From Escherichia coli (GTDB lineage: Bacteria; Pseudomonadota; Gammaproteobacteria; Enterobacterales; Enterobacteriaceae), in assembly GCF_030013205.1 (NCBI RefSeq), contig NZ_CP122648.1: 64,000 nt of DNA; one strand, given 5' to 3'. The notes below the pieces were generated by a model, which was given only the letters and a program-made list of their open reading frames with translations, was not told where the DNA came from and searched no databases. A program made the position numbers and the translations under genes. Shown piece after piece: positions 6,385 to 37,545 of this stretch. Numbering within the stretch: position 1 is the first letter of the stretch; the number at the start of each line of letters is the position of its first letter.

Positions 6385-8274
6385 ATGGCTGAATTCGAAA
6401 CCACTTTTGCAGATCTGGGCCTGAAGGCTCCTATCCTTGAAGCCCTTAACGATCTGGGTTACGAAAAACCATCTCCAATTCAGGCAGAGTGTATTCCACA
6501 TCTGCTGAATGGCCGCGACGTCCTGGGTATGGCCCAGACGGGGAGCGGAAAAACTGCAGCATTCTCTTTACCTCTGCTGCAGAATCTTGATCCTGAGCTG
6601 AAAGCACCACAGATTCTGGTGTTGGCACCGACCCGCGAACTGGCGGTACAGGTTGCTGAGGCAATGACGGATTTCTCTAAACACATGCGCGGCGTAAACG
6701 TGGTTGCCCTGTACGGCGGCCAGCGTTATGACGTGCAATTACGCGCCCTGCGTCAGGGGCCGCAGATCGTTGTCGGTACTCCGGGCCGTCTGCTGGATCA
6801 CCTGAAACGTGGCACTCTGGACCTTTCTAAACTGAGCGGTCTAGTTCTGGATGAAGCTGACGAAATGCTGCGCATGGGCTTCATCGAAGACGTTGAAACT
6901 ATTATGGCGCAGATCCCGGAAGGTCATCAGACCGCTCTGTTCTCTGCAACCATGCCGGAAGCGATTCGTCGCATTACCCGCCGCTTTATGAAAGAGCCGC
7001 AGGAAGTGCGCATTCAGTCCAGCGTGACTACCCGTCCTGACATCAGCCAGAGCTACTGGACTGTCTGGGGTATGCGTAAAAACGAAGCACTGGTACGTTT
7101 CCTGGAAGCGGAAGATTTTGATGCGGCGATTATCTTCGTTCGTACCAAAAATGCGACTCTGGAAGTGGCTGAAGCTCTTGAGCGTAACGGCTACAACAGC
7201 GCCGCGCTGAACGGTGACATGAACCAGGCGCTGCGTGAGCAGACACTGGAACGACTGAAAGATGGTCGTCTGGACATCCTGATTGCGACCGACGTTGCGG
7301 CCCGTGGCCTGGACGTTGAGCGTATCAGCCTGGTAGTTAACTACGATATCCCGATGGATTCTGAGTCTTACGTTCACCGTATCGGTCGTACTGGTCGTGC
7401 GGGCCGTGCTGGCCGTGCGCTGCTGTTCGTTGAGAACCGTGAGCGTCGTCTGCTGCGTAACATTGAACGCACCATGAAGCTGACCATTCCGGAAGTTGAA
7501 CTGCCGAACGCAGAACTGCTGGGCAAACGTCGTCTGGAAAAATTCGCCGCTAAAGTACAGCAGCAGCTGGAAAGCAGCGATCTGGATCAATACCGTGCAC
7601 TGCTGAGCAAAATTCAGCCGACGGCAGAAGGTGAAGAGCTGGATCTCGAAACTCTGGCCGCCGCACTGCTGAAAATGGCACAGGGTGAACGTACTCTGAT
7701 TGTTCCGCCAGATGCGCCGATGCGTCCGAAACGTGAATTCCGTGACCGTGATGACCGTGGTCCGCGCGATCGTAACGACCGTGGCCCGCGTGGTGACCGT
7801 GAAGATCGTCCGCGTCGTGAACGTCGTGATGTTGGCGATATGCAGCTGTACCGCATTGAAGTGGGCCGCGATGATGGTGTTGAAGTTCGTCATATCGTTG
7901 GCGCGATTGCTAACGAAGGCGACATCAGCAGCCGTTACATTGGTAACATCAAGCTGTTTGCTTCTCACTCCACCATCGAACTGCCGAAAGGTATGCCGGG
8001 TGAAGTGCTGCAACACTTTACGCGCACTCGCATTCTCAACAAGCCGATGAACATGCAGTTACTGGGCGATGCACAGCCGCATACTGGCGGTGAGCGTCGT
8101 GGCGGTGGTCGTGGTTTCGGTGGCGAACGTCGTGAAGGCGGTCGTAACTTCAGCGGTGAACGCCGTGAAGGTGGTCGTGGTGATGGTCGTCGTTTTAGCG
8201 GCGAACGTCGTGAAGGCCGCGCTCCGCGTCGTGATGACTCTACCGGTCGTCGTCGTTTCGGTGGTGATGCGTAA
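6385..8274 (+). CDS. deaD: cold-shock DEAD-box RNA helicase DeaD/CsdA (629 aa)
   Basis: ORF track 6319..8274; ATG at 6385 gives [20 protein letters not shown] motifs; Arg/Gly-rich C-terminal tail. Confidence 0.95.
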
Positions 8275-9680: not shown

Positions 9681-11021
<1,341 letters not shown>

Positions 11022-20139: not shown

Positions 20140-22133
20140 GATAACTTCCTGTTAATCACGCAATCCGGGTTAGCCGTCAGGCTGCCGGTATTACCGTTGA
20201 TTTCAAAACCCTGAACCTGGCGCATTTGTGAGAAATGATTTGCCAACGACCAGGCATCGACGCCCATCGCATACATGCGAGCCAGCGAATAATCGTTGTT
20301 CACCGCACTGAGCGCCTGCTGCATTAACGGCAGATTACCGCCTGCCAGCATCGGGATTTCGCTGTACTGCAAGCCTTCCATCTCCAGTCGGAAATCCGGG
20401 CCAGCGGTCCCTTGCGCACTGCGGGAGCTGGCGTACAGCGTTGCACCGCTCTGGCTACCGTTACGCATGGCGATCATCGGTTTGATAAAAGCGATTTCAC
20501 CCGGCGTTGCCACAATGTACACCGCATCGACACGACCGCCATTATTGGTGAACTGGTCATCGGTTGGCGTGGTTTGCAGCGTTGGATTGTTGGTCGTCAT
20601 GCCGGAGTCGGTTGTCGCTCTGTGAGTAATCGGGCTACCCGTTAAAGCAATACCAGAACCGCCGTTAACACCCGCGCGTAATTCATTGGTGGAACCAAAT
20701 TTCTGCTGTAAAACCGTGCCGCCGCCCAGTTTCTGCCACTCCTGCGCAAACGCATTGGCTACGCGATCGCCCAATGAACTGCGTGGGATCAGCACCAGCG
20801 GCGCTTGTTTACCCTGGTCACGAATATGACGCGCTGCATCGCGCGCTTCGTCTTCTGGTGAAAGCGCGAAGTAACAAATATTGACGCGGTTTTCGATGTT
20901 CTCCGGCTGGTTCAGTGCCAGCACGTTCAGCGGGGTGTTGCTCTTCAGCAACTCTTCAACGTTATTTTTCAGCAACGGACCGACCACAATACTCGCGCCA
21001 TCCTGTTGAACCTGGCTTAAGATCTGGCTAAGTGGTTGTGATGATGTATCGTAGATTTTCAGCTCTGCGGATGGATTCGCAGGTGCGCTTACCGCTGCGG
21101 TGGTTGCCGCCGGGGCGCTTACAGGCACCGGCTGGGCCGCAGGTTGTTCACCGGTCAGATCGCTAACCGAGGCTTGTGCCGGGCTGGCAACGCCATCCAC
21201 GGTTTGCGGCTGAGGTTGTTCTGCTACGTCTGCGGCAGGTGCGGCAGCTACCTGAGCCGCCACTGGCTGAGTGCCGATATTTTTCGCCGCTTCAAAGCCT
21301 TGCTGAATAGTGCGACCAAATACCGCTGCCTGGCCATTCAGTGGCAAAAGCAGGGCGATTTTGTTGGTCGATGCGGGTTTAAACGCTTTTACGTTAACCA
21401 ACTGCGTTGGCAGCATTTTCGCGCCCGGGTTGTTCGGATAACGTTTCTGCCAGTCGGCGATCCCGGCTTTCATCATGTCGGGATCGTTACGGTTATCAAA
21501 CCAGATGCGCTGCAGATCCAACCAGCCTTGCAGAATATTTTCGTCGGCATTGATCACCAGCGTATTCGCCTGTTCCTGAGTCATGGAGGAGAGCGCCTGC
21601 CAGGTGGCGTCAATATTCTGCTGCTTTTCTTTCGCGCCGAGCAGCGGTTCCTGAGCAATTAACGCGCGCAGTAAATCAATGGAAGGACGCCCCTGGCTGG
21701 CATCGATTTTTGCCTGCCAGTAACGCGCTTGCTGGTTTTGTTCTAAATCTGCAGGTGTGATTTTCGCCAGCAAGTTTTGCGCGCCAGCAAAATCTTTCTG
21801 CGCCAGTTTAATCTCTGCCGCCAGCAGTGTTTTCTCGCGACGCTGAGAATCGTTCAGTTCTTGCGGTAGTTGGTTAAACAACTCCACCGCCTGTCCGGTT
21901 TTATCTTCTTTCACCAGTGCACGAATGGCGAGTAATTGCCAGTTGATCCTGGTATCATCAGAACTTTGCTGCATCTGTTGCAGGTAAAAGGCAGAATCAG
22001 CCTGCGCCGTGCCCTGCATATAAGCAGTGGACTGATCGGGAGTATGGGTGCCACAACCGGCGAAAATCAGGGCTGCCAGAACAACAGGCAGACAACGCGC
22101 GGCTTTCAAACGAGAAAATGTTGAGGGTACCAT
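20097..22133 (-). CDS. lpoA: penicillin-binding protein 1A activator lipoprotein LpoA (678 aa)
   Basis: ORF track 20097..22163; likely start [15 protein letters not shown]; lipobox. Confidence 0.9.
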
Positions 22134-22197
22134 AATGTATCCAGTGATATTTTTTTTACGCAATGCTCAATATTAAATCGGCAATACGGACGACACA

Positions 22198-23061
22198 ATG
22201 AAACAACACCAATCGGCGGATAATTCTCAGGGCCAGCTTTACATTGTACCGACGCCAATCGGCAATCTGGCGGATATCACCCAGCGTGCGTTGGAGGTAT
22301 TACAGGCCGTTGATCTGATTGCCGCCGAGGATACGCGTCACACCGGTTTATTGCTGCAACATTTTGGGATTAATGCTCGGTTGTTTGCGCTGCACGACCA
22401 TAACGAACAACAAAAAGCCGAAACGCTGCTGGCGAAGCTGCAAGAGGGGCAAAACATTGCGCTGGTTTCCGATGCCGGAACGCCGCTAATTAACGATCCT
22501 GGCTACCATCTGGTGCGTACCTGCCGTGAAGCGGGGATTCGCGTGGTGCCGCTACCCGGGCCGTGTGCTGCTATCACTGCGTTAAGCGCCGCGGGTTTAC
22601 CATCCGATCGTTTTTGTTATGAAGGCTTTTTACCTGCCAAATCAAAAGGCCGCCGTGATGCGCTAAAAGCCATTGAAGCGGAGCCGCGCACGCTGATTTT
22701 TTATGAATCTACCCACCGTCTGTTAGATAGCCTGGAAGATATCGTTGCGGTATTAGGCGAATCCCGCTACGTCGTTCTGGCGCGTGAGCTGACCAAAACC
22801 TGGGAAACCATTCACGGCGCGCCCGTTGGCGAGCTGCTGGCGTGGGTCAAAGAAGATGAAAACCGTCGCAAAGGCGAAATGGTACTGATTGTCGAAGGCC
22901 ATAAAGCACAGGAAGAAGACTTACCCGCCGATGCCCTGCGCACGCTGGCGCTGCTACAGGCAGAACTGCCACTGAAAAAAGCGGCGGCGCTGGCAGCAGA
23001 AATTCACGGCGTGAAGAAAAATGCGCTGTATAAGTATGCACTGGAGCAGCAGGGAGAGTGA
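22198..23061 (+). CDS. rsmI: 16S rRNA C1402 2'-O-methyltransferase (287 aa)
   Basis: ORF track; divergent from lpoA. Confidence 0.92.
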
Positions 23062-23110
23062 TTACAGGCGTCGCAGCAGGAATAGCGCTACAACGCCTTT
23101 ACCTGGCGAG

Positions 23111-23878
23111 TTAACGACGACACATTTCATCAATCACGCATGTGAAATGGTTATGCAGCCATAAAAACGAAGCTGGGATAGCGGTGGAGACTTTAGCCGT
23201 GAGAAAACGTTCTGTCGCATCCTGCTTTCCTTCGCCAGTCACCAGTAACAAAACTTCGCGGGCATTGAGAATATCCTTCAGGCCTAAGGTGATCCCACGA
23301 GTCACGGGACGGCCCGCGGTTTTTAACATCTCATGTTGCTGTGTTCTGGCATCAAGTTGACTGATATGGCAGGCCGGTTGCAGGTTTTCTCCCGGTTCGT
23401 TCAGCCCAAGATGACCGTTTTTCCCCAATCCGAGAACGCATAAATCCAGACCGCCTTTGCGCGCAATCAGGTTCGTTACCCGTTCGCACTCTGTCTCATT
23501 TATCTCTTCGGAGCGAAAGCTGATGAGTTGGTCTTCACGTAGCCCCAGCGGCTGCACGATATGCTGTTGCAGGAAAGTTTCGCAGGTGCCAGGCATCGTT
23601 AATGGCAGATCCACCCATTCGTCGAGCTTCACGAAGGTGAGCTGGCTGACATCAACCTGCTGCTGGTGGATTTTTTCTACCAGATAATGATACGTCAGTA
23701 ATGGCGTGGCTCCGGTCGCCAGGCAAATCACGGCATCCGGTTTGCTACGGATCACGGCCAATAAATATTCGCTGGCACGTTCACTTAACGCCGTATAGTT
23801 TTCAACTTGTTGAAGGGTTTGCACAGGATGAAATTCCTTAAGTAAAGAGGCACCGCCAGACGCGGTGCCTCGTTCCAT
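23111..23878 (-). CDS. agaI: putative galactosamine-6-phosphate deaminase/isomerase (NagB-like)
   Basis: ORF track; NagB/6-phosphogluconolactonase-like fold; last gene of aga cluster. Confidence 0.85.
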   Translation of the reverse strand: MERGTASGGASLLKEFHPVQTLQQVENYTALSERASEYLLAVIRSKPDAVICLATGATPLLTYHYLVEKIHQQQVDVSQLTFVKLDEWVDLPLTMPGTCETFLQQHIVQPLGLREDQLISFRSEEINETECERVTNLIARKGGLDLCVLGLGKNGHLGLNEPGENLQPACHISQLDARTQQHEMLKTAGRPVTRGITLGLKDILNAREVLLLVTGEGKQDATERFLTAKVSTAIPASFLWLHNHFTCVIDEMCRR

Positions 23879-24670
23879 TTACAAAATGCCGAATGCAGAA
23901 CAAACAATAGAAAGAACAAACGTCACGCCGATTAACAGCACCGGATGCGCTTTTTTCACCCGCAGGAAGTAATACATCAGCAGGGTGTAGGCCATCGGTA
24001 AAATATTCGGGAAGACTTTATCGAAGAAATCCTGCTGCAGCGCGACGCTGTGGGTACTGTCGATGGCAAACGATGTCACCACGTTAATATGCACATACGA
24101 AGCGATCAGCCCGCCGATTACCGTGATCCCGAGGATGGTTGCCGAACGAGCAATCATCTGCGAGTTCTCTCGCACTTTATCGATCGCCTTCACGCCGACT
24201 GAATAACCGACGTGGGTCCAGCCGACGCGCAGGAAGAAGATAAGCAGGTAAACGGCGAAAAATAGAATCGGCCCCAGCAAGTTTCCCTGGCTGGCAAATG
24301 ATGAGCAAATTCCCGCCATAATCGGCAATAAGGTAAACCAGAAAATCGCATCGCCAATCCCGGCGATTGGGCCAAACAGTGCCACTTTGAGGCCTTTAAT
24401 GGTGTCGCGGTTTTCTCCTTTTTCTTCCATCGAAATTAATAACCCTATCAGGAATCCGACCAGATTCGGGTGGGTATTAATAAATTCGAGGTTATCTTTC
24501 ATCGCCGCGCTTAGGCCCGGTTTGTCGTCCTTATAAATCTTTTTCAGGCTCGGCAACATCGCCCAGGTAAAACCGCCCGCCTGCATCCTTTCGTAGTTAA
24601 AGCTCGCTTGCAGCAGTGACGAACGAAAGCCCAGACGGGTGATATCTTTTTTACTGATTTCAGATCCCAT
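23879..24670 (-). CDS. agaD: PTS galactosamine-specific EIID component (263 aa)
   Basis: ORF track 23879..24817; likely start MGSEISKKDITR overlapping agaC stop. Confidence 0.88.
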   Translation of the reverse strand: MGSEISKKDITRLGFRSSLLQASFNYERMQAGGFTWAMLPSLKKIYKDDKPGLSAAMKDNLEFINTHPNLVGFLIGLLISMEEKGENRDTIKGLKVALFGPIAGIGDAIFWFTLLPIMAGICSSFASQGNLLGPILFFAVYLLIFFLRVGWTHVGYSVGVKAIDKVRENSQMIARSATILGITVIGGLIASYVHINVVTSFAIDSTHSVALQQDFFDKVFPNILPMAYTLLMYYFLRVKKAHPVLLIGVTFVLSIVCSAFGIL

Positions 24671-25463
24671 TGCTGTAGTCCTCTTCTTCATTTTTACTGG
24701 CAACGGGCTGCGGTTGCGCTTGCTGCCGGGATTTCGCATTGAAAAACTCATACACCGCAAAGCCTGCGCCCAGTACGGCAACCGGCAACAGGTTGCTGAC
24801 CTGGATGTAGCAAACAAACAGGAAACCGGCGATCAGGTAAGGGATATATTGCGCTTTGAACATTACGCGCAGCAGCAAGCCAAAACCAACGGCAGGCAGA
24901 ATACCGCCAGCCACTTCAAAGCCGTGGGTCAGCCAGGCGGGCATCGCTTTCACCAGCGCCTGCATCGCCCCTTGTGCCAGGTAAGTACAGAGGAAAGCAA
25001 TCACCGCATACGCTGAAGCAACGATGAGCATCGTTGTCCAGTTAAGTCGGGAAAACGCTGCCGTATCCGCTTCTTTCGCGCATTTATCGGCTTTGGTCAT
25101 AAATAATGAGAAAGCAGAATAGAAGAACAGAATGACGTACTGCATTAACAAACTAAACGGCAGGCCAAGACCAATTGCCGTTTTGGCATCAACGCCCGTA
25201 GACCATGCAATGACGGTGGTCATCAGACCCGCCATAATCGGGTTGGGCGGCTGAACACCACCTGCAGGGGTTAATCCGGCGAAAGCCAACTCTGTCAGAC
25301 CACCGGTAATTAAGCCAGTCTGAATATCACCGAGAATAGCGCCAGTTAGGGTACAAACGATTATCGGGCGGAATAAAAATAAGGCTTCCAGCCAAAAATC
25401 AATCCCCAGAAAGAAAACTAACGCCGCCAGGGATAATCCCTGGAGTAGGGTTATTTCATGCAT
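24660..25463 (-). CDS. agaC: PTS galactosamine-specific EIIC component (267 aa)
   Basis: ORF track. Confidence 0.9.
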   Translation of the reverse strand: MHEITLLQGLSLAALVFFLGIDFWLEALFLFRPIIVCTLTGAILGDIQTGLITGGLTELAFAGLTPAGGVQPPNPIMAGLMTTVIAWSTGVDAKTAIGLGLPFSLLMQYVILFFYSAFSLFMTKADKCAKEADTAAFSRLNWTTMLIVASAYAVIAFLCTYLAQGAMQALVKAMPAWLTHGFEVAGGILPAVGFGLLLRVMFKAQYIPYLIAGFLFVCYIQVSNLLPVAVLGAGFAVYEFFNAKSRQQAQPQPVASKNEEEDYSNGI

Positions 25464-25501
25464 TTTTATTACCTCAAACCAATATTAAGGCGATTTTAGA
25501 T

Positions 25502-25978
25502 TTAGTCAGGGATTTGTTCTTTTTGATCGCCAGGGACGTCCTGAATGAAAACATTCACGCCACGTTGTTTAATAAAACGTAAGTCCGTGAGATCCTGGTC
25601 ATCGACATAAACTTTACTGCTGATTTGCTTTTTCCCTTCCGAGAAATGCATATTGCCGACGTTGACATCTTTCAGGTCAATGCCACCTTCTACCAATTTA
25701 CGTACCGTTTGTGGCGTACGGCAAATCAGGAAGATCTTTTGATGCGGTGCAGCTTTGCCGATGACATTAATGGTTTTTTCGATAGTAAAGAAACGAATGC
25801 CAAAGCCGTAGGTTTCCGCGGTAATACCCATTAATTTCTGTTGAATATCATCGTTAGCGACAACATCATCCACGACTACCAGCAGATTTGCACCGATGGT
25901 AGATGTCCAGGTCACGCCAACCTGACCGTGAACCAGACGGTTATCAATACGGGTTAAGAGAATATTTGGACTGCTCAT
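25502..25978 (-). CDS. agaB: PTS galactosamine-specific EIIB component (158 aa)
   Basis: ORF track. Confidence 0.9.
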   Translation of the reverse strand: MSSPNILLTRIDNRLVHGQVGVTWTSTIGANLLVVVDDVVANDDIQQKLMGITAETYGFGIRFFTIEKTINVIGKAAPHQKIFLICRTPQTVRKLVEGGIDLKDVNVGNMHFSEGKKQISSKVYVDDQDLTDLRFIKQRGVNVFIQDVPGDQKEQIPD

Positions 25979-26144
25979 TGTGTAATCCTCACCATAAAGT
26001 TGAATAATATAATTTTTTTAAATATATTATTGTTGCGATATTGTACTGATGTATTTATTAAGGTTTAGTTATCTCCTTTACCATTAAGGCACTCCCCGAT
26101 ATTAATCGGGAAGTACATTGGGATAAATCATAAAAAACTAATGA

Positions 26145-27017
<873 letters not shown>

Positions 27018-28172
27018 TTATGCCTGCCACGGATGAATGATTACGCCTTGCACCACGCGGTTAACGGTGCCGCTGGCTGATGGGGTATCCGGCGTATTGC
27101 CCATGTGCAGCGACTGCATAAGTGCAAACGTCTGGGCGTACATCAGGAAGCAAAATGCCTGCTCAACGTCGATAAAGTGACGGGACGGCGGCAGGATAAT
27201 ATGTGGACCGGCAGCAACGATGTCTGTGCTTTCCGCGGCGATGGCGATTACGCGCATTGCCTGGTTATCGCGGCGAAGTTCAGCCAGTAGATCAAGATCA
27301 TACTGACGGGTGTAAGGGTGGCTGGAGACAAATACCACCACCAGCGTTTCGTTATCGACCAGCGATTTCGGGCCATGACGGAATCCGGTCGGGGAATCAT
27401 AAAAGGCCGCCAGTTTACCCGCCGTCAGTTCCAGTACTTTCAGCGCCGACTCGCGTGCTGCGCCCTGTAAGCCACCGCTGCCGAGATAAACGATCCGTTT
27501 CCACGGTGCGTAACCAAACACACCTTCGCTGAAATCGCCCAGTGAGGTCAGGATCGCCTGGCAACGATCCGCCACGTCGCGGAAGCTCTGGCTGTTGATC
27601 GTCTCAGGTGCGAAAACCGCGAGGCAGCTGGCCATCATGGTGGTAATGCTGCTGGTCATCGCAAAGCCGCGATCGTGCGTTTCTGCGGGCATCAGTAGGG
27701 CAAACGCGTTGTCGCTGTTGATCGCGTTTTGGTAAAGAGCGCCCGCTTCGTTGCAGGTGATCGGCAGGTGATAGCACTCGGGTACAAATTGATTTGCCAG
27801 TTCCACGGCGGCGACGCTTTCCGGGCTGTTGCCGGATCGACCGAAGGAGATCAACAGCAGTGGATGAGTTGGATTCAGGTAGTCCATCGGATTGGTGACC
27901 AGATCGGTGGTCGGTACGGCGCTGAAGTTTTTACCGGTATGGCTGGCGAGCCACGGCGCGATAATGTCACCGATAAATGCCGAGGTTCCGGCTCCGGTCA
28001 GGATTACCCGCAGATTCTCTTTGCGCAGTAACGGTTCAAGGAAGTTATTGAGCGCGGAACGTAGTGCGTCGATGTTGGTGAGTGAACGGATCCATGCGCG
28101 AGGCTGATGGCGGATCTCTTCTTCAGTCCATGTACCGGTTGCGGCAGCAGCAGGGGGGTAATTTTCTGGCAT
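27018..28172 (-). CDS. agaS: SIS-domain putative galactosamine-6-phosphate deaminase/isomerase (384 aa)
   Basis: ORF track. Confidence 0.9.
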   Translation of the reverse strand: MPENYPPAAAATGTWTEEEIRHQPRAWIRSLTNIDALRSALNNFLEPLLRKENLRVILTGAGTSAFIGDIIAPWLASHTGKNFSAVPTTDLVTNPMDYLNPTHPLLLISFGRSGNSPESVAAVELANQFVPECYHLPITCNEAGALYQNAINSDNAFALLMPAETHDRGFAMTSSITTMMASCLAVFAPETINSQSFRDVADRCQAILTSLGDFSEGVFGYAPWKRIVYLGSGGLQGAARESALKVLELTAGKLAAFYDSPTGFRHGPKSLVDNETLVVVFVSSHPYTRQYDLDLLAELRRDNQAMRVIAIAAESTDIVAAGPHIILPPSRHFIDVEQAFCFLMYAQTFALMQSLHMGNTPDTPSASGTVNRVVQGVIIHPWQA

Positions 28173-28189
28173 AACTCAATCCTTAGTCT

Positions 28190-28360
28190 GATGAACTTGA
28201 CGTCGGGCGTTGTCGCTTTCGCTTACCTTTCGTTTCATTTCACTTGGTGATGTCTTTCGTTGATTAAAATCTATAGAAAAGAAACTGAAAGTTCAATGGA
28301 GAAAAAAGAAATAAAACGAAATTTGTGATCGTTGAAAGAAAAGACAAGGGAAGATTAAAG
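28190..28360. promoter_or_regulatory. agaS promoter region with repeated tttcgttt/aaacgaaa-type motifs (AgaR operator-like)
   Basis: Repeated motif seen in sequence; AgaR assignment is established knowledge/inference. Confidence 0.5.
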
Positions 28361-28522
28361 GATTGCGTGATAACGTCGCTATGTTCACCGATTGCCGGAT
28401 GCGGCGTACCGTAGGTCGGATCAGACGCGTTAGCGTCGCATCCGACACCGCTGCACAGATCAAAAAGAAAGAAAAAGAAAGGCCTTACGGGGGAAGTGAA
28501 GGCCCAATAATGGAGCAAACCA

Positions 28523-29656
28523 TCAAAACGAAGCTAATTGACCCTGAATCCAGATTTGTTGCACATGTAGCCCGCTATCCAGCGCAACGACGCTGGCGCG
28601 TTTGCCCGGTTTAAGCGATCCCAGAACACCATCAACACCCAGCATTCGCGCCGGATGCAGCGACGCCATATGGATGGCTTCCGCAGGCGTTACGCCCGTT
28701 AACTCGACCATGTTGCGCACTGCTGCATCGACAGATAGCGTACTGCCCGCCAGCCCACCGGACGCGGTACGGACAACGCCACCGTGCATCTGCACTTCTT
28801 CGCCACATAACGTATAGCGACCATCCGGCATCCCAGCTGCCTGCATCGCGTCGGTGATCAGTACGATTCTCTCTTTCGCACAGCAACAACACAGCGACAT
28901 CGCCGCCGGATGCACATGATGACCATCGGCTATCAGTTCCAGCCAGGCGCGCTTGTCCGTTAATCCCGCGCCAACCATTCCCGGTTCGCGGTGATGTAAA
29001 CCTGTCATCCCGTTATAGCAATGCACCAGGCCGTCGGCACCAGCATCAAATGCGGCGCGGGTTTGTTGCCAGGTCGCCGCGCTATGCCCCAGCATCACCC
29101 TTACGTTTTGCTGTTTAAGATGGCGGATGGCCTGCAATGCCCCTTCTTTTTCCGGTGCCAGCGCTACCACGCGTAAGGTGTGCTGAGAAACGGCAATCAA
29201 TTGATCCAGCTCGGCAATTTCCAGCTCGCGAAACAGCTCCGGTGGATGCGCGCCTTTATTCTGCGGCGTGAAGTACGGTCCTTCGAGATAACTCCCCAGC
29301 ACTTGCGCACCAGGTCCGCCGCGTTGGCAACGTTGAGCAATACGTTTCAGCGCCGCATGAATGGTATTAAGCGGCGCGGTTACGGTGGTCGGTAACCAAC
29401 TGCCGACACCTTCGCATGCCTTGTGCATTGCCAGCTTGTCGAGTACATCCGGCGCGTCATCCATTACATCAACGCCCGCACCACCGTGTACATGGGTGTC
29501 GATGTAAGCGGGGCAGAGCAGTTCCGCATCGCGTTCAGTCACGCCCACTGGAATCGGTTCGATTGCTGCGATGACACCGTCAGCAATACGCAACTGATGG
29601 TCATCGAGCCATCCCTCTTCAGTTAGCAGCCTTCTGGCGCGCAGAACGGGTGTCAT
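28523..29656 (-). CDS. agaA: N-acetylgalactosamine-6-phosphate deacetylase, full length (about 377 aa)
   Basis: ORF track 28523..29677; NagA-like. Confidence 0.88.
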   Translation of the reverse strand: MTPVLRARRLLTEEGWLDDHQLRIADGVIAAIEPIPVGVTERDAELLCPAYIDTHVHGGAGVDVMDDAPDVLDKLAMHKACEGVGSWLPTTVTAPLNTIHAALKRIAQRCQRGGPGAQVLGSYLEGPYFTPQNKGAHPPELFRELEIAELDQLIAVSQHTLRVVALAPEKEGALQAIRHLKQQNVRVMLGHSAATWQQTRAAFDAGADGLVHCYNGMTGLHHREPGMVGAGLTDKRAWLELIADGHHVHPAAMSLCCCCAKERIVLITDAMQAAGMPDGRYTLCGEEVQMHGGVVRTASGGLAGSTLSVDAAVRNMVELTGVTPAEAIHMASLHPARMLGVDGVLGSLKPGKRASVVALDSGLHVQQIWIQGQLASF

Positions 29657-30087
29657 ATTCCTTCCTCGACCGGACATTCTTCATGGCAGCGGCCTAACTC
29701 GTCCACCAGACTGGTCAGCCCACGGTGTCCACACTCCAGCGCCTGCACACGGAATTCTTCACCGATTAACCCTTCGCGCTCCAGCACCATCTCCAGTAGC
29801 AGTTGTAAATTGGTGCCTGTAATCACTTCACAGCCCGGTTTTTGCATCGCCAGCGTTGAAGCTACGCGAAACGGCGTGCCGCCCAGCAAATCCGTCAGAA
29901 AAACAATGCCGTCTTCACAATCCAGTTGGGCGATGGCCTCTTCAAGCTGCGATGTAAGCAGCGCGGTGCTTGAGGTTTCCGGAAAATCGATGGCGATAAA
30001 CTGCGATTGCTCGCCGAGGATTTGCTTCATTGCTTTTTCCATGCCACTGGCAAACCCGCCATGCCCTGTCAAAATAATACTTAACAT
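29653..30087 (-). CDS. agaF: PTS N-acetylgalactosamine-specific EIIA component (144 aa)
   Basis: ORF track. Confidence 0.88.
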   Translation of the reverse strand: MLSIILTGHGGFASGMEKAMKQILGEQSQFIAIDFPETSSTALLTSQLEEAIAQLDCEDGIVFLTDLLGGTPFRVASTLAMQKPGCEVITGTNLQLLLEMVLEREGLIGEEFRVQALECGHRGLTSLVDELGRCHEECPVEEGI

Positions 30088-30104
30088 CTAATACCTCATT
30101 GTAT

Positions 30105-30983
30105 TTAAAGGAAATGGCAGAATTTACCGACGATGCCGAGAACCACGGTCACTGCAATCAGGCGCAGCGGACTCCAGCCGCGGCGTACCAGCCAGAACAT
30201 GGTCAGGGTGTAGACCAGCGGTAAGAAGGCAGGCATCAGTTTGTCGATAACATCAGCCTGTAACTTAACCACTGCGTCGCCCGCTGTGATTTCCAGCGTG
30301 GTGCTTAAACGAACATAGGTTGCCACCAGCGCGCCGATTACCGTCATCCCAACGATAGACGCAGCATGGCCGACTTTTTTGGTATTCGCTTTAATGAGTG
30401 GAATCGCCGCCACGCCCATGCGGTAAGCATAATGCGCCAGACCAAAACGCAGCCCCAGGTGTACCACGTTGAACAGCACAATAAAGACGACTGCGCCAAG
30501 AATAGAGCCTTGTAGCGCGAGGCTTGCGCCTATCCCACCACAAATCGGCAGTAGCGTCAGCCAGAACATTGCATCGCCAATCCCGCCAAGTGGCGCACCG
30601 ACGGCAATTTTGGTGCTCTGAATACTGTTAACGTCCTGCTTAGAACGCTCCATCGCAAGGATAATGCCGATAACAAACGTCACCAGAAACGGATGGGTAT
30701 TGAAGAAACCCATATGCCCCTTCATGGCGCGCGCCAGGTCGCGTTTATTAGTGTGGATCTTTTTCAGAGCAGGCAGCAGACCGTACAACCAGCTAGAAGC
30801 CTGCATACGTTCGTAGTTAAAAGACGCTTGTAACAGCATGGAACGCCAGGCGACGCGGTTGATATCTTTTTTCGTCAGCTCTGCGCCAATGCTCTGATCT
30901 TCATACACGTTTTCATTGACGCCTGTCAGCAGTGTTTCTTCGTTTTCACTGACGTTCGGCAGGGTGGTTTGATTAGATGCCAT
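30105..30983 (-). CDS. agaE: PTS N-acetylgalactosamine-specific EIID component (about 292 aa)
   Basis: ORF track 30105..30989; paralog of agaD. Confidence 0.88.
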   Translation of the reverse strand: MASNQTTLPNVSENEETLLTGVNENVYEDQSIGAELTKKDINRVAWRSMLLQASFNYERMQASSWLYGLLPALKKIHTNKRDLARAMKGHMGFFNTHPFLVTFVIGIILAMERSKQDVNSIQSTKIAVGAPLGGIGDAMFWLTLLPICGGIGASLALQGSILGAVVFIVLFNVVHLGLRFGLAHYAYRMGVAAIPLIKANTKKVGHAASIVGMTVIGALVATYVRLSTTLEITAGDAVVKLQADVIDKLMPAFLPLVYTLTMFWLVRRGWSPLRLIAVTVVLGIVGKFCHFL

Positions 30984-31752
30984 CTTCAAATTCCTCTTTC
31001 TGTGCCGCAGGTTGAGTCGGTTCAGGAGATTTACGCAGCAGGTCGATCAGCGCCATCGCCAGCGCGGCGGCAGCAATAGCCAGCACCGGTAACTTGAGCC
31101 AGGCTGCGGCAACAAAGCCCAGGATGAAGTAGGGGATGTAGACGTTTTTCATCATGATTTTCAGCAGCACGGCAAAACCGATTGCTGGCATGATGCCGCC
31201 CGCGACGCCGAGGCCGTCGATTAATCGTTGCGGCAGGACATCAATGATGGTTTTGGCATGTTCTGCGCCGAAGTAGATAGGCAGGAAAGCGCAGAGAAAA
31301 TAGAAAGTGCCGAGTGCCAGCAGTGCCAGATAGTTCACGCGTTCAATGCCGCGTGTATCGGCGTTCTCCGCCATCCGGTCGCAGCGAGACATCACGCCAG
31401 ACATCACCGAGAACAGGAAGGTAATCCCCATCTGTACTGCGACAGCGAAAGGTACGGCGACACCGACCGCGACATCGGGTTTCACGCCAGTAGTAATGGC
31501 AAACGCCGTGCCGACGATAGTACCGATAATCACGTTAGGCGGTTGTGCGCCTGCCAGCGGGGCCAGCCCCATCCACACCAGTTCCAGCGTACCGCCGGTT
31601 AAAATACCGGTATGCAGATCGCCAAGTACCAGTCCGACCAACGGGCCGAGGACCACCGGGCGGTGCATATGGGTTAGGCCGTTAAACATATCCAGGCCAG
31701 CGATAAAGGCGATAATGCCCAACGCGAATGCCTGCAACAGACTGATTTCCAT
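30973..31752 (-). CDS. agaW: PTS N-acetylgalactosamine-specific EIIC component, full length (259 aa)
   Basis: ORF track. Confidence 0.88.
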   Translation of the reverse strand: MEISLLQAFALGIIAFIAGLDMFNGLTHMHRPVVLGPLVGLVLGDLHTGILTGGTLELVWMGLAPLAGAQPPNVIIGTIVGTAFAITTGVKPDVAVGVAVPFAVAVQMGITFLFSVMSGVMSRCDRMAENADTRGIERVNYLALLALGTFYFLCAFLPIYFGAEHAKTIIDVLPQRLIDGLGVAGGIMPAIGFAVLLKIMMKNVYIPYFILGFVAAAWLKLPVLAIAAAALAMALIDLLRKSPEPTQPAAQKEEFEDGI

Positions 31753-31762
31753 GATGAATCCC

Positions 31763-32236
31763 TCAAAGTAATTTAAAGAGGTCCACTGCAGGCTCTGTCG
31801 GGACGCCCTGAACGAAGCATTCCACCCCAGCGGCTTTCAGGTCGTTAAATGCTGCAATATCGCCCGCATCTACAGAAACCGTTTTGGCGATTTGTTGCTT
31901 GCCATTGGCGTAGTGCATATTGCCAACGTTAATGCGATTCACCGGAACGCCACCTTTCACCAGCGTCAGGAAATCGGCAGGTGTTTTACAAACCAGCAGG
32001 ATTTTCTGTCGATCGGCGGCGCGATGAATGTTGTCGATGACTTTTTGCAGCGTCCAGAAACGTACGGCTATCCCTTCTGCCAGTACCATTTCCATCAGGT
32101 TTTGTTGTACCGGATCTTCGGCAACCTCATCGTTGGCTACCAGCACCAGATTTGCTCCCGCAAATCCGACCCACTGAACGCCGACCTGACCGTGAATCAA
32201 GCGTTCATCAATCCGGCTTAAAACAATATTTGGCAT
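31763..32236 (-). CDS. agaV: PTS N-acetylgalactosamine-specific EIIB component (157 aa)
   Basis: ORF track 31763..32272; likely start MPNIVLSRIDERL. Confidence 0.88.
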   Translation of the reverse strand: MPNIVLSRIDERLIHGQVGVQWVGFAGANLVLVANDEVAEDPVQQNLMEMVLAEGIAVRFWTLQKVIDNIHRAADRQKILLVCKTPADFLTLVKGGVPVNRINVGNMHYANGKQQIAKTVSVDAGDIAAFNDLKAAGVECFVQGVPTEPAVDLFKLL

Positions 32237-32258
32237 AGCGTGTTCCTCTTTGTTTTGC

Positions 32259-33539
32259 TTATTGGCCTTCACAGGCTGTGTGGTACTGCGCCAGGATGTC
32301 CTGAATATGGTTGATAATGAGTTCCCGTGGCGTCGGTTGCAGCTCGCCGGAGCGAACTTTCACGTATTGCAGCGGCAGATACTGGCTGATGAGCGGCAGC
32401 GGAATCGGTGAATCCGCCAGATTACGAACCAGATGGGCGAAAGCGTCATCAATCTGGCTGTCCGGCCAGTAATAGCGCACGCGATCCGAGTAGCTATAAC
32501 CACGCGCCATACGACGCGCGTTGCCGTCACCGTGGTAGTGGCTTTGCCAGTATTCCGGGCGGTCGAGCATCACGTTTTCCAGCACCTGACGCAGACCGGA
32601 ACAGGCTTTCGCTGGTACCAGTTCTTCTTCAATCGCCGCCAGAGAAAAAAGGGCTTCACGCAGGGCGAAGGTCAGCGCCGGGCCAACTTTCAGAATGGCA
32701 AAGTGGTCAATCACTAGCTGGCGCAACGATTGCGGCGTTTGGTAATCGGTAGAGTGCGCTTCGAAAATCAGCGTTTCGTAGTTTTCGACCATCTGGCTTA
32801 AGGCGGTCGCTTTAGCTGGCTGATAATCAATAACGTTGGTGTGATCGAATTCGACGCCGGGTTGTACCACCAGAGCAATGATGCGTGGCCAGATGGCACT
32901 CAGACCTTGCTTTTCAAAGGCGTGACGATGGGCTTCCAGCGTGGCGCGGGCGGCATCTGGCGTGGTGACCGCCAGCTCGCTTAAGGTTTCATGCGCGCCG
33001 CCAGGTACCGGTACTTCGGTACCAATGACATACACCAGATCGACTTCGCCAAAGTGTTCACGGCAGCTTTCTTCCGCCACTTTCGCCAGACGGGCGGCGC
33101 GTTCAGCCACGATGTCATCAGTTAAGGGAACCGGATCGTCCTGGCAGGACATGCTGCAATCAAGGTGGATTTTTTTGAATCCTGCCGCCACGTAGCTTTT
33201 AATCAAATCATCGGCATTGGCCATTGCCTGAGCGGCTGGCTGGTTTTGCCAGCGGTTTGGCCCCAGATGGTCACCACCCAGAATCAACGCATCCTGTGGG
33301 AAATTCAACGAGTCGGCGAGCTGACAAACAAAGCCGCGAAAATCGGCGGGCGTCATTCCGGTATAACCGCCGAACTGGTCTACCTGATTGGAGGTTGCTT
33401 CAATCAGTAACGACGTTTGGTTTGCACTGGCGTAGCGGATTGCAGCTTCCAGCACCAGCGGATGTGCGGAACAAACGGCATAAATTCCATTTGTTTTGCC
33501 CGCTTTGTGCTGTCTCACCATTTCTGTCAGATGTTTCAC
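32259..33539 (-). CDS. kbaZ: tagatose-bisphosphate aldolase non-catalytic subunit (426 aa)
   Basis: ORF track. Confidence 0.9.
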
Positions 33540-33559
33540 TTTCCTCTCCAGTTCAGATT

Positions 33560-33780
33560 ACTGCGATATTAATCTTTCGTTTTGTTTCAGTTGATACTGC
33601 GCCATGGTGAGATAAAAATAAAACGAAAGATAATGGTTTTCTGATCTGATTCACAAAAGAAACATAATGAAAGCCACTGAAACGAGAGTAGCTTGCGCCA
33701 ATGGGTAAGGTGGGCTTGCATTTGCTTAATAGAAAGGCGTTAATAGGCAAAACGAAATGAAACGAAAGTTTTACGAAAGG
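33560..33780. promoter_or_regulatory. divergent kbaZ/agaR promoter region with repeated aaacgaaa/tttcgttt motifs (AgaR operator-like)
   Basis: Motif repeats visible (e.g. aaacgaaatgaaacgaaag). Confidence 0.5.
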
Positions 33781-33787
33781 ACTTACT

Positions 33788-34597
33788 ATGAGTAATACCG
33801 ACGCTTCAGGTGAGAAGCGAATGACAGGCACCAGCGAGCGACGAGAACAGATCATTCAGCGTCTGCGACAGCAAGGGAGTGTGCAGGTTAACGATCTGTC
33901 GGCATTGTATGGCGTATCTACTGTGACGATCCGCAACGATCTGGCGTTTCTGGAAAAGCAGGGGATCGCTGTGCGTGCCTATGGCGGCGCGTTGATCTGC
34001 GATAGCACGACGCCGTCAGTCGAGCCATCAGTGGAAGATAAAAGCGCGCTGAACACCGCAATGAAACGCAGCGTTGCGAAAGCTGCCGTTGAGTTGATTC
34101 AGCCAGGTCATCGGGTGATTCTCGATTCCGGGACCACCACTTTTGAGATTGCTCGTCTGATGCGCAAGCACACTGACGTAATTGCGATGACCAACGGTAT
34201 GAACGTGGCTAATGCGTTGCTGGAAGCGGAAGGCGTTGAGCTGCTGATGACCGGCGGGCATTTGCGCCGTCAGTCGCAATCTTTTTACGGCGATCAGGCT
34301 GAGCAATCGCTGCAAAATTACCACTTCGATATGCTGTTTCTTGGTGTAGATGCGATCGATCTGGAGCGCGGCGTCAGCACGCATAATGAAGATGAAGCCC
34401 GTTTAAACCGCCGGATGTGCGAAGTTGCGGAACGGATCATCGTGGTCACCGATTCCAGTAAATTCAATCGTTCCAGTTTACATAAGATCATTGATACTCA
34501 ACGTATCGACATGATCATTGTTGATGAAGGCATTCCTGCGGATAGCCTGGAAGGGCTGCGAAAGGCTGGGGTTGAAGTGATTCTGGTCGGGGAGTGA
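33788..34597 (+). CDS. agaR: DeoR-family repressor of the aga operons (269 aa)
   Basis: ORF track; N-terminal HTH, DeoR C-terminal domain. Confidence 0.92.
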
Positions 34598-34651
34598 GAA
34601 AGGGGGCCCGCTGGTCAACACGAATGCGTTCGGCGGGCATTGTGAACACCA

Positions 34652-35116
34652 TCAATCGGTTTCTTCTGTCTCTCGGGTGAGGGTTTCCCAGTCGGCAGGA
34701 GGATGTCCTCTTTTTAACATTTTGCTGAATACGGTATAAGCATCTGTTTTTTTACCGTAGGTGCGCAGAGTGTTTTCATCGTTCATCCATCCCAGAATGA
34801 TGACTTTCTCTTTTTCACTATAACGAAAGAAGAGACGATAACGACCAGCACCAAATTTTACCCGTGACCAGTCTTTATTTTTCCCAGAGCCTAACGACTT
34901 GCCATGACGGAATGCCGGTGATGATGGATTGACCGTGATATGCTCCTCAATCACTTTATGGACTACCGCCAATAACTTTGTGGCGGCTTTTCTCTGATAA
35001 TTTTCAGGATCTTTTCCCTTTAATGTCTCGACTTCGGCAACTAAAGCGTCGTAGGTTTCCTGAAAACAGGGATGAGCATATAGCGCCCAACTATTAACCC
35101 TTTGTGGAAAATCCAT
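34652..35116 (-). CDS. yhaV: toxin YhaV, ribosome-dependent mRNA interferase (154 aa)
   Basis: ORF track; 4-nt overlap with upstream prlF. Confidence 0.9.
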   Translation of the reverse strand: MDFPQRVNSWALYAHPCFQETYDALVAEVETLKGKDPENYQRKAATKLLAVVHKVIEEHITVNPSSPAFRHGKSLGSGKNKDWSRVKFGAGRYRLFFRYSEKEKVIILGWMNDENTLRTYGKKTDAYTVFSKMLKRGHPPADWETLTRETEETD

Positions 35117-35451
35117 TATTCGTCGTCGCCAATCTCATCATCAATGTTGACGTCCATGCCAGCGACAAGTTTCTTTCCTTGTTGAATGTTGAATGGACGA
35201 GTTTTTTGCGGGTTGTTCTGGATATCTGCATCCAGAAAACGCAAAAATGCATTCATAGTATGATCCTCCTGTTCATCTCCCAGTCGGCACATAAATACTT
35301 GCCCACCAGGCAGAATTTCGTAATGAATGCTGTCCTGGCCTGGCTTCAGTTTTAAGGCCTCACGCACTGGCGCGGGGATAGTTGTTTGTCCGCGTATCGT
35401 GACCTTTGATTCAGTGGTCAGTACAGCGTGAGAGCGAGCATTAGCGGGCAT
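35116..35451 (-). CDS. prlF: antitoxin PrlF (SohA), AbrB-fold (111 aa)
   Basis: ORF track; acidic C-terminal tail; paired with yhaV. Confidence 0.9.
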   Translation of the reverse strand: MPANARSHAVLTTESKVTIRGQTTIPAPVREALKLKPGQDSIHYEILPGGQVFMCRLGDEQEDHTMNAFLRFLDADIQNNPQKTRPFNIQQGKKLVAGMDVNIDDEIGDDE

Positions 35452-35549
35452 GATTCACTGTCCTTTTACAGCCTGTTTTCTGCTCAAATTATAAGCTTGA
35501 ACTAAGGTAATGCAAATGCATTATTAATGGACGTGGGGACTTTAAACAA

Positions 35550-35580
35550 TAAAAACATGGCACTAAGGCCATGTTTTGCG
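35550..35580 (-). terminator. garD rho-independent terminator (acatggc cttag tgccatgt + T-run on minus strand)
   Basis: Hairpin plus T-tract seen downstream of garD stop. Confidence 0.6.
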
Positions 35581-35599
35581 AGGGACGTTCCAAAAGAAA

Positions 35600-37171
35600 T
35601 CAGGTCACCGGTGCCGGGTTAAACACCGCCAGCTGGTTATGCAGTCCCCATTGATCTGAGAAGGTTTTCTTCTTCCCGCTGGCGACGTCGAGAATAAAGT
35701 GGAACAACTTCCAGCCCACCTCTTCAATAGTTTCTTCGCCGGTAGCGATGGTGCCCGCATTAATATCCATTAAATCAAACCAGCGGTTCGCCAGCTCGGT
35801 GCGGGTCGCCATTTTAATGACGGGTACCGCCATCAGGCCGTACGGCGTACCACGACCGGTCGTAAACACTTGCACGGTGATACCCGAAGCCACCTGTTGC
35901 GTGCCACAGACAAAATCGCTGGCTGGCGTCGCGGCGTAAATTAATCCGCGTTTAGTCGGGCGTTGACCAGGCGACAGCACTTCAACAATTGCGCTTTTAC
36001 CCGATTTAGCAATGGAGCCGAGCGCTTTCTCCACCACATTTGCCAGACCGCCTTTCTTGTTGCCCGGCGAAGGGTTGGCGCTGCGGTCGGTTTTTCCCAT
36101 ATTGAGATAGTTATCGTACCACTCCATCTCCTCCAGCAGCCGTTTGCCGACCTCTTCGTTCACTGCGCGTGGTGTCAGCAGATGGATCGCGTCACGCACT
36201 TCCGTGACTTCTGAAAACATCACCGTTGCGCCGCAGCGCACCAGTAGATCAGACGCATACCCAACCGCCGGGTTTGCCGTTACGCCAGAAAACGCATCGC
36301 TACCGCCGCACTGCATGCCGACAACCAGTTCTGAAGCCGGACAGGTTTCTCGCTGCCGTTGATTCAGTTTGTGCAAATGGCGTTCGGCGACCTGCAAAAT
36401 ATCCTCGACCATGGACTGAAAACCGACATGCTTTTCATCCTGCAAACTGACAATGCTGGCGCTTTCTACTGGAATAGCTTGCACATCATCCGTTCCAGTC
36501 AGCAGGCGTTCAGGCTGCAACTTTTCACAACCCAGACCAATCACCATTACTTCGCCGCCAAAGTTAGGGTTCAGCGAAATATTGTGAATGGTACGAATAG
36601 GCACAACTGCCGCCGGTGCGTTAATCGCCACGCCACAACCGTACAAATGATTCAGCCCCACCACGCCATCGACGTTCGGGTATTTCGGTAGCAGATCGCG
36701 TTCAATGATTTTTACTACATAGTCCACCACGCCTGCCACACAGTGGACGCTGGTGGTGATGCCGAGCAGGTTTTTAGTGCCCACGCTGCCATCGGCATTG
36801 CGATAGCCCTCAAAGGTGTATCCTTCCAGCGGCGGTAAGGGCTCCGGGACTTTGGTTGCCAGTGGCAGCGTGTGTAACGGCGGCGCTTCCGGTAGTACAA
36901 CCATTGATTCGTCGATCCAGCTTCCGCGTGGGATTGCGCGCACGGCGTAACCAATCACTTCGCCATAACGAATAATTTCACCATTAGCCGGAATGTCCAG
37001 CAATGCGACTTTATGCCCCTGGGGAATATGTTCAATTAATTCCAGCCCATCCGGAAAACGCGTTCCTGCTTTCAGGCCATTATCATTAACAATAATTGCC
37101 ACATTATCTGTGTCGTGAACTTTTATATAAAACGCAGTTGGCGTTTCTTGTCTGATTTCGATGTTGGCCAT
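35600..37171 (-). CDS. garD: galactarate dehydratase (523 aa)
   Basis: ORF track. Confidence 0.93.
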
Positions 37172-37545
37172 TGTGCAATATTCTCCAGCCAGGGGTTATT
37201 AAAATGAGGACCTGGTCTCATTTAAAAATAAATGACTTCATTGGGTGAAATAAGAATGTCAGGAGTTTAAACGCAGAAATGTGATCAATGTCAATCATTT
37301 CAGGGATTGCAGTGCCGCGCGGTAAGGTAAAGCGCAAATCTGTGCTTTAGCGCGCAACCTTATGTGCATATGCTCAAAATAATATTTAAATAGTATTAAT
37401 TAAATTAGCATTTGCACAATGATTATTATTCTCGCGCTGCTTATACTAATTCCCGAGTTCATTGCCGTAACGGCATAAATAAAACTCATAAATAACACCT
37501 TCCCCATAATAATAAAAATCAGCATAAGTACCCGAGGTAAATAAA

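Follow-up and report, generated by a model that had tools for sequence, protein, structure and literature searches.

Does an uninterrupted aga/gam locus make an Escherichia coli strain a user of N-acetylgalactosamine (GalNAc, Aga) and galactosamine (Gam), and does it tell anything about the background of that strain? The question is raised by positions 23111-34597 of a 64-kb stretch of E. coli contig NZ_CP122648.1, analysed here at its full length and hereafter called the window, for which a sequence-only reading had described a complete two-operon aga/kba cluster predicting an Aga+ phenotype and a non-K-12 background. We find that the locus is an ordinary, complete E. coli aga/gam regulon for the import and breakdown of both amino sugars, an already known system in its commonest form. 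Being canonical and complete in a non-K-12, swine-lineage chromosome, it should very probably render the strain Aga+ Gam+, a prediction consistent with the full length of all genes, the absence of the K-12 deletion and of known null alleles, the presence of operator matches, and conserved control regions.

All 13 aga/gam genes are found between 23111 and 34597, each as one uninterrupted open reading frame (ORF) in the ORF list and on translation. Every translation ends in a single terminal stop and is free of internal stops and frameshifts, and the outer limits coincide exactly with the stop codons of agaI and agaR. Furthermore, each of the 13 proteins matches its NCBIfam equivalog across the whole profile with a score above the curated cut-off. 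The initial count of 13 full-length genes, including intact agaW, agaE and agaA, is borne out by the translations, by how fully the equivalog profiles are covered and by tblastn against a nine-genome panel; when hidden frameshifts or stops were sought in these three genes by the same means, none was found, and such lesions can be ruled out. The whole 64-kb window is base for base identical (100%) to positions 575997-639996 of the swine strain ETEC4079 (NZ_CP122643.1), whose RefSeq annotation lists agaI, agaD, agaC, agaB, kbaY, agaS, nagA (equal to agaA), agaF, agaE, agaW, agaV, kbaZ and agaR with no pseudogene flag. Judged by these matches, which go far beyond chance, this is a conserved orthologous locus.

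The ORF list for 21500-36500 gives twelve successive minus-strand ORFs (23111-33539) and a single plus-strand ORF (33788-34597), that is, the canonical order and orientation in which agaR diverges from kbaZ-agaVWEFA, followed by agaS-kbaY-agaBCDI on the kbaZ strand. The same 13 genes, order, orientation and divergent agaR characterise the regulon of E. coli C and ATCC 8739 (Brinkkoetter et al. 2000; Hu, Patel & Mukherjee 2013, PMC3668189). ATCC 8739, a reference whose 13 aga genes are all annotated as intact, differs from the window by 0-13 residues per protein, with AgaV and AgaW identical, and shares the flank on the yhaV-prlF-garD side. Indeed, the cluster sits between rsmI and yhaV/prlF, and its chromosomal site adjoins yhaV-prlF-garD, as expected of an E. 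coli C-type regulon. One element of the earlier description has to be given up, namely an operon agaR-kbaZ-agaVWEFA: as agaR is encoded on the plus strand, opposite to the other twelve genes, it cannot belong to the kbaZ operon. It is divergent and has its own promoter, so that there are three transcription units, PR, PZ and PS (PMC3668189), with all three promoters bound by AgaR (PMC3668189, PMC4694137).

Earlier studies of E. coli C, O157:H7 and K-12 indicate how the encoded proteins would work together. AgaR (33788-34597, plus strand, 269 aa; NF007316 with 576.9 bits and NF040755 AgaR with 465.9 bits, both full length) would repress PR (agaR), PZ (kbaZ-agaVWEFA) and PS (agaS-kbaY-agaBCDI); all further genes are on the minus strand. 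N-acetylgalactosamine would be converted to its 6-phosphate (Aga-6-P) on entry through enzyme II (EII) components EIIB/C/D-Aga of its phosphotransferase system (PTS). These are AgaV (31763-32236, 157 aa; NF008508 319.9 bits, 1-157/157; identical to that of ATCC 8739), the full-length AgaW (30973-31752, 259 aa; NF040757 AgaW 410.8 bits against a cut-off of 300), which is 100% identical to eight panel genomes, and AgaE (30105-30983, 292 aa; NF040760 AgaE 614.8 bits, cut-off 500, 1-292/292). Galactosamine would likewise become Gam-6-P on entry through EIIB/C/D-Gam, formed by AgaB (25502-25978, 158 aa; NF007288 281.6 bits), AgaC (24660-25463, 267 aa; NF007289 405.4 bits) and AgaD (23879-24670, 263 aa; NF007359 453.8 bits, cut-off 400). 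Both transporters would be phosphorylated by the common EIIA, AgaF (29653-30087, 144 aa; NF040761 AgaF 216.3 bits against a cut-off of 130, 1-144/144), as in the corrected figure of PMC4049405. AgaF aligns with the IIA domain of ManX and retains the conserved His of the N-terminal GHG/THG motif; the aga system differs from ManXYZ in its substrate, in having EIIA and EIIB as two distinct polypeptides and in using one EIIA for two transporters. The derepressed Aga PTS of E. coli C can carry glucose as well (PMC9628945).

Downstream of transport, Aga-6-P would be deacetylated to Gam-6-P by AgaA (28523-29656, 377 aa, full length), in which step NagA can replace it; AgaA passes the TIGR00221 nagA equivalog cut-off (286.5 vs 225.65 bits), which is why PGAP, the annotation pipeline, names the gene nagA. 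Gam-6-P would then be deaminated and isomerised to tagatose-6-P by AgaS (27018-28172, 384 aa; TIGR02815 633.3 bits; matched end to end by the E. coli AgaS structure 3C3J) and not by AgaI. AgaS is the Gam-6-P deaminase and essential in the pathway, and agaI, which had been counted as a pathway gene, is dispensable in E. coli C and O157:H7 (PMC3668189). AgaI itself (23111-23878, 255 aa; NF007291 472.2 bits, profile 1-236/236) is a NagB-like putative Gam-6-P isomerase. Tagatose-1,6-bisphosphate would be produced by a phosphofructokinase encoded elsewhere. Finally, the catalytic class II aldolase KbaY (26145-27005, 286 aa; NF009375 666.4 bits, 1-286/286), stabilised by the non-catalytic subunit KbaZ (32259-33539, GTG start, 426 aa; NF012002 KbaZ 892.6 bits, cut-off 707, 1-426/428), would split the bisphosphate into dihydroxyacetone phosphate and glyceraldehyde-3-phosphate (PMC3668189). 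The KbaY allele, WP_000022773.1, is shared with strain FCI1.

What, then, distinguishes this locus from that of K-12? BLAST against K-12 MG1655 yielded two collinear blocks, 23154-29081 and 31377-37597 of the window, and the intervening segment (29078-31382), equivalent to a 2305-bp K-12 deletion that comprises the 3' part of agaW, agaE, agaF and the 5' part of agaA, is present whole in the window. Inspection of the junction revealed a 6-bp direct repeat, GGTCGC, flanking the deletion at 29072-29077 and 31377-31382 as a microhomology. The K-12-type junction, a truncated agaW fused to a truncated agaA, is absent from the window, where the sequence runs on continuously over 29078-31382. In K-12, by contrast, agaE and agaF are absent from the annotation, which retains an IIC fragment marked "missing C-terminus" and a deacetylase fragment marked "missing N-terminus", and tblastn recovered solely residues 1-125 of AgaW and 193-377 of AgaA, with no match for AgaF. 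The remainder of the K-12 locus is orthologous, with 97.7-98.1% identity in the shared parts and the same control regions. This agrees with the published "2.3 kb deletion" that renders K-12 Aga- Gam- (PMC3668189). A deletion removing agaE and truncating agaW and agaA, as described in the sequence-only reading, is therefore real and absent from the window, with the correction that agaF, which had gone unmentioned, is lost too.

Completeness as such says little about origin. The aga locus was found by megablast of 23111-34597 in 5,342 of 5,426 complete E. coli genomes, and those carrying it whole share 96.7-100% identity with the locus of the window. The K-12-deleted segment (window 29090-31370) is covered to at least 80% in 4930 of the 5426 (~91%), and the K-12 junction occurs in 371, the listed examples of which are K-12-sized laboratory strains. 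The intact cluster is the species norm and the deleted K-12 version the exception; as a rare or diagnostic trait it is ruled out by the 4930 genomes that carry the segment, and it holds almost no information on strain background. The non-K-12 background proposed before is nevertheless correct, on other grounds: the window is ~2% divergent from K-12, lacks the yraHIJK operon of K-12, and is identical to ETEC4079, so that overall sequence identity demonstrates the non-K-12 origin far more directly than does the intact cluster. Its 17 closest genomes are all of pig or wild-boar origin, with O139:H1 and "ETEC" (enterotoxigenic E. coli) strains among them.

The missing yraHIJK operon also touches the edge of the cluster. 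While ATCC 8739 and K-12 possess this fimbrial operon between agaI and rsmI, in the window (23062-23153) rsmI adjoins agaI with a 49-bp spacer. As the break falls within the 3' end of agaI, the C-terminal 12 residues of AgaI differ from ATCC 8739 and the protein measures 255 instead of 251 aa, and RsmI gains one extra residue. The same junction without yraHIJK is common to 1835 of the 5426 complete genomes, including sequence type 131 (ST131).

Complete genes could still be silent. For their control, we searched the entire 64-kb window, allowing at most three mismatches, with WRMMTTTCRTTTYRTTTYNYTTKK, taken here as the AgaR operator consensus attributed to Ray & Larson 2004. Six matches were obtained against 0.18 expected, and all of these predicted sites lie within the two aga control regions: at 33571-33594, 33653-33676 and 33748-33771 in the divergent kbaZ-agaR spacer (33540-33787; PZ and PR), and at 28224-28247, 28302-28325 and 28461-28484 in the agaA-agaS spacer (28173-28522), where a repetitive extragenic palindromic (REP)-like element is followed by the PS control region. 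A generic sigma-70 promoter and terminator scan was uninformative, with 6 promoter-like sites against 11.0 in shuffles and no convincing terminator, and an Rfam scan of the window found no match within the aga region and, elsewhere, rnpB, SraG, the S15 leader and naRNA4.

Could altered regulation, such as a non-inducible AgaR or damaged promoters, nonetheless leave a complete locus effectively silent? AgaR carries V12M relative to the K-12 and ATCC 8739 allele and the control regions hold a few SNPs (single-nucleotide polymorphisms), which would fit such a scenario. Against it, this AgaR allele (WP_000072171.1) occurs in unrelated strains, among them human isolates, and the AgaR equivalog profile has barely begun at residue 12. 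Moreover, the kbaZ-agaR region is 98-100% identical to the nine-genome panel and 100% to strain 22AR0747, the 180 bp of the agaA-agaS spacer next to the promoter, about half of it, hardly vary among five strains, and all six operator matches are kept. Compared with K-12 and ATCC 8739 the control regions are conserved (96-98% identity to the latter), and we consider regulatory silencing very improbable. Within the agaA-agaS spacer, the REP-like core (~28353-28410) exists in two unalignable versions, one shared by the window and ATCC 8739 and the other by K-12, O157:H7 and ST131, the flanking promoter and operator sequence being conserved.

The next question is whether intact reading frames suffice for the phenotype, and here O157:H7 is instructive. 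Its locus has the full-length 13-gene layout and 97.6% identity to the window; EDL933 and Sakai are Aga+ Gam- and spinach-outbreak isolates Aga-. Amber codons at agaC codon 8 and agaI codon 72 account for the Gam- phenotype of EDL933 and Sakai, and in the spinach-outbreak isolates a single missense change, AgaF G91S, results in Aga- (PMC3668189). Consistently, the O157:H7 record flags agaI with an "internal stop" and has a shortened agaC. None of these three published natural loss-of-function alleles (AgaF G91S, AgaC Q8*, AgaI Q72*) is present in the window, where the sites read Gly91, Gln8 and Gln72, and they can be dismissed as a defect of this locus. The precedent implies a more general point, however: since one missense change is known to abolish Aga use, the Aga+ phenotype is not readable from ORF integrity alone.

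We therefore looked for substitutions absent from every member of the nine-genome tblastn panel. This survey returned AgaD I41S and M75I, AgaS A102T and S316T, AgaA R81C, AgaF S108I, AgaE G64S and six changes in KbaZ, which were placed on solved homologues (AgaS 3C3J, 3I0Z and 3ODP; ManX IIA 1PDO; GatZ 2FIQ; 3TXV; NagA structures). Apart from AgaE G64S, every one sits where solved homologues or paralogues vary. The six KbaZ changes lie at positions variable in 2FIQ and 3TXV, AgaF S108I in a linker that is variable relative to 1PDO, and AgaA R81C at a variable position; at AgaS 102 and 316 E. coli alleles differ and the distant homologues 3I0Z and 3ODP vary too, and the AgaD allele with I41S and M75I is found identically in a swine-lineage relative. 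As inactivating changes, those in AgaS, AgaF, KbaZ, AgaA and AgaD were rejected on this ground. What remains among the lineage-specific missense changes that set the window apart from ATCC 8739 is, above all, AgaE G64S.

This Gly-to-Ser change (codon 64 at 30792-30794) is rare and lineage-restricted: of ~4500 genomes, just 7 contain the exact 61-mer centred on this codon's surroundings, all of them swine isolates. Between the window and the wild-boar O139:H1 strain W13-16 there are only three differences in 12 kb, namely AgaS T6P (the sole AgaS difference, at a position where E. coli alleles differ), AgaE G64S and a synonymous agaV site, and G64S arose after the split from W13-16. Gly64 lies within an N(Y/F)ERMQxxG(W/F) motif that AgaE shares with the ManZ-type IID of ManXYZ (solved structures 6K1H and 7VLX; E 5e-51 to 3e-48), and where ManZ-type proteins have Gly the window AgaE has Ser.

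Hence the alternative in which the ORFs are intact and the strain is Aga-negative or impaired, because G64S cripples EIID-Aga, with galactosamine use through AgaBCD kept. This and several further points weigh against the Aga+ Gam+ prediction. The prediction is drawn from sequence, and its operator sites depend on the form taken for the AgaR consensus. Gly64 is invariant in 120 of 120 AgaE orthologue cluster representatives (Escherichia, Enterobacter, Serratia, Erwinia, Aeromonas), and the paralogue AgaD and the solved E. coli and Listeria ManZ likewise have Gly at the equivalent position; with AgaF G91S there is a precedent for a single Gly-to-Ser change ending Aga use (PMC3668189). In a sister strain, lastly, agaE bears a stop (W46*) and agaD a frameshift, showing transport genes without visibly strict constraint in this clade. 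The wider IID family speaks for tolerance, however. Among 150 diverse representatives (31-60% identity), the position is occupied by Gly (117), Ser (8), Ala (7), Cys (2), Thr (2) or Asp (1), so that Ser is found in 8 of 137 diverse IID proteins. As Ser is natural in distant members, a small polar residue is tolerated in the IID fold, which weakens G64S as a clear loss of function; moreover, Gly-to-Ser is conservative in size, and any structural or functional tie of AgaE residue 64 to sugar binding is hypothetical. We regard an Aga-impaired strain with crippled EIID-Aga as unlikely and G64S as a mild caveat, with a small chance of an Aga defect, and retain the prediction of an Aga+ Gam+ strain.

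The sister strain deserves a closer look. CFSAN018748, also from swine and slightly more distant, has agaE annotated with an "internal stop" and agaD split in two (7350-8228 and 1122-1914 in the coordinates of its own sequence), and direct comparison traces these to W46* (TGG to TAG) and to a 1-nt insertion (+1 frameshift) at agaD codon 110. Thus, among 18 near-identical genomes, seven carry AgaE G64S and one carries the combination of agaE W46* and the agaD frameshift. Two independent hits in agaE within a small clade are suggestive, with events far too few for statistics, and it seems doubtful, though conceivable, that the membrane components of the Aga/Gam PTS would be under relaxed or negative selection in the swine-adapted O139:H1/ETEC clade. 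Most of the 40 differences between CFSAN018748 and the window cluster at 25900-28220 (agaB-kbaY-agaS), a divergent patch that suggests a short recombination tract in an otherwise near-identical clade.

Other parts of the window depart from the reference strains as well. A 1280-bp copy of the insertion sequence IS621 (IS110 family) occupies 9737-11016, with its transposase coding sequence at 9932-10912, and is inserted, relative to ATCC 8739, in REP-like sequence between mtr and yhbW. On the other side of the aga cluster, the identical ETEC4079 record labels garL (2-dehydro-3-deoxyglucarate aldolase; 38896-39671) and yhaB (43679-44217) as pseudogenes with frameshifts, and yhaC is intact in the window and a pseudogene in ATCC 8739.

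What the locus means for the biology of E. coli is accordingly modest. The complete aga/gam regulon has been genetically characterised since 2000 and is the majority state in the species, so its importance here is small, and the significance first assigned to it was overstated. The lesson for annotation and metabolic modelling is that intact ORFs do not establish an Aga+ strain, and that this lineage bears an uncharacterised allele, AgaE G64S. If G64S were to impair or re-tune transport, it would be a second natural example, after AgaF G91S of O157:H7, of a pathogen lineage whose Aga use is shut off by a point mutation; were this true, possible causes might be the availability of GalNAc in the pig gut, or escape from a phage or bacteriocin with a mannose-family IIC/IID receptor.

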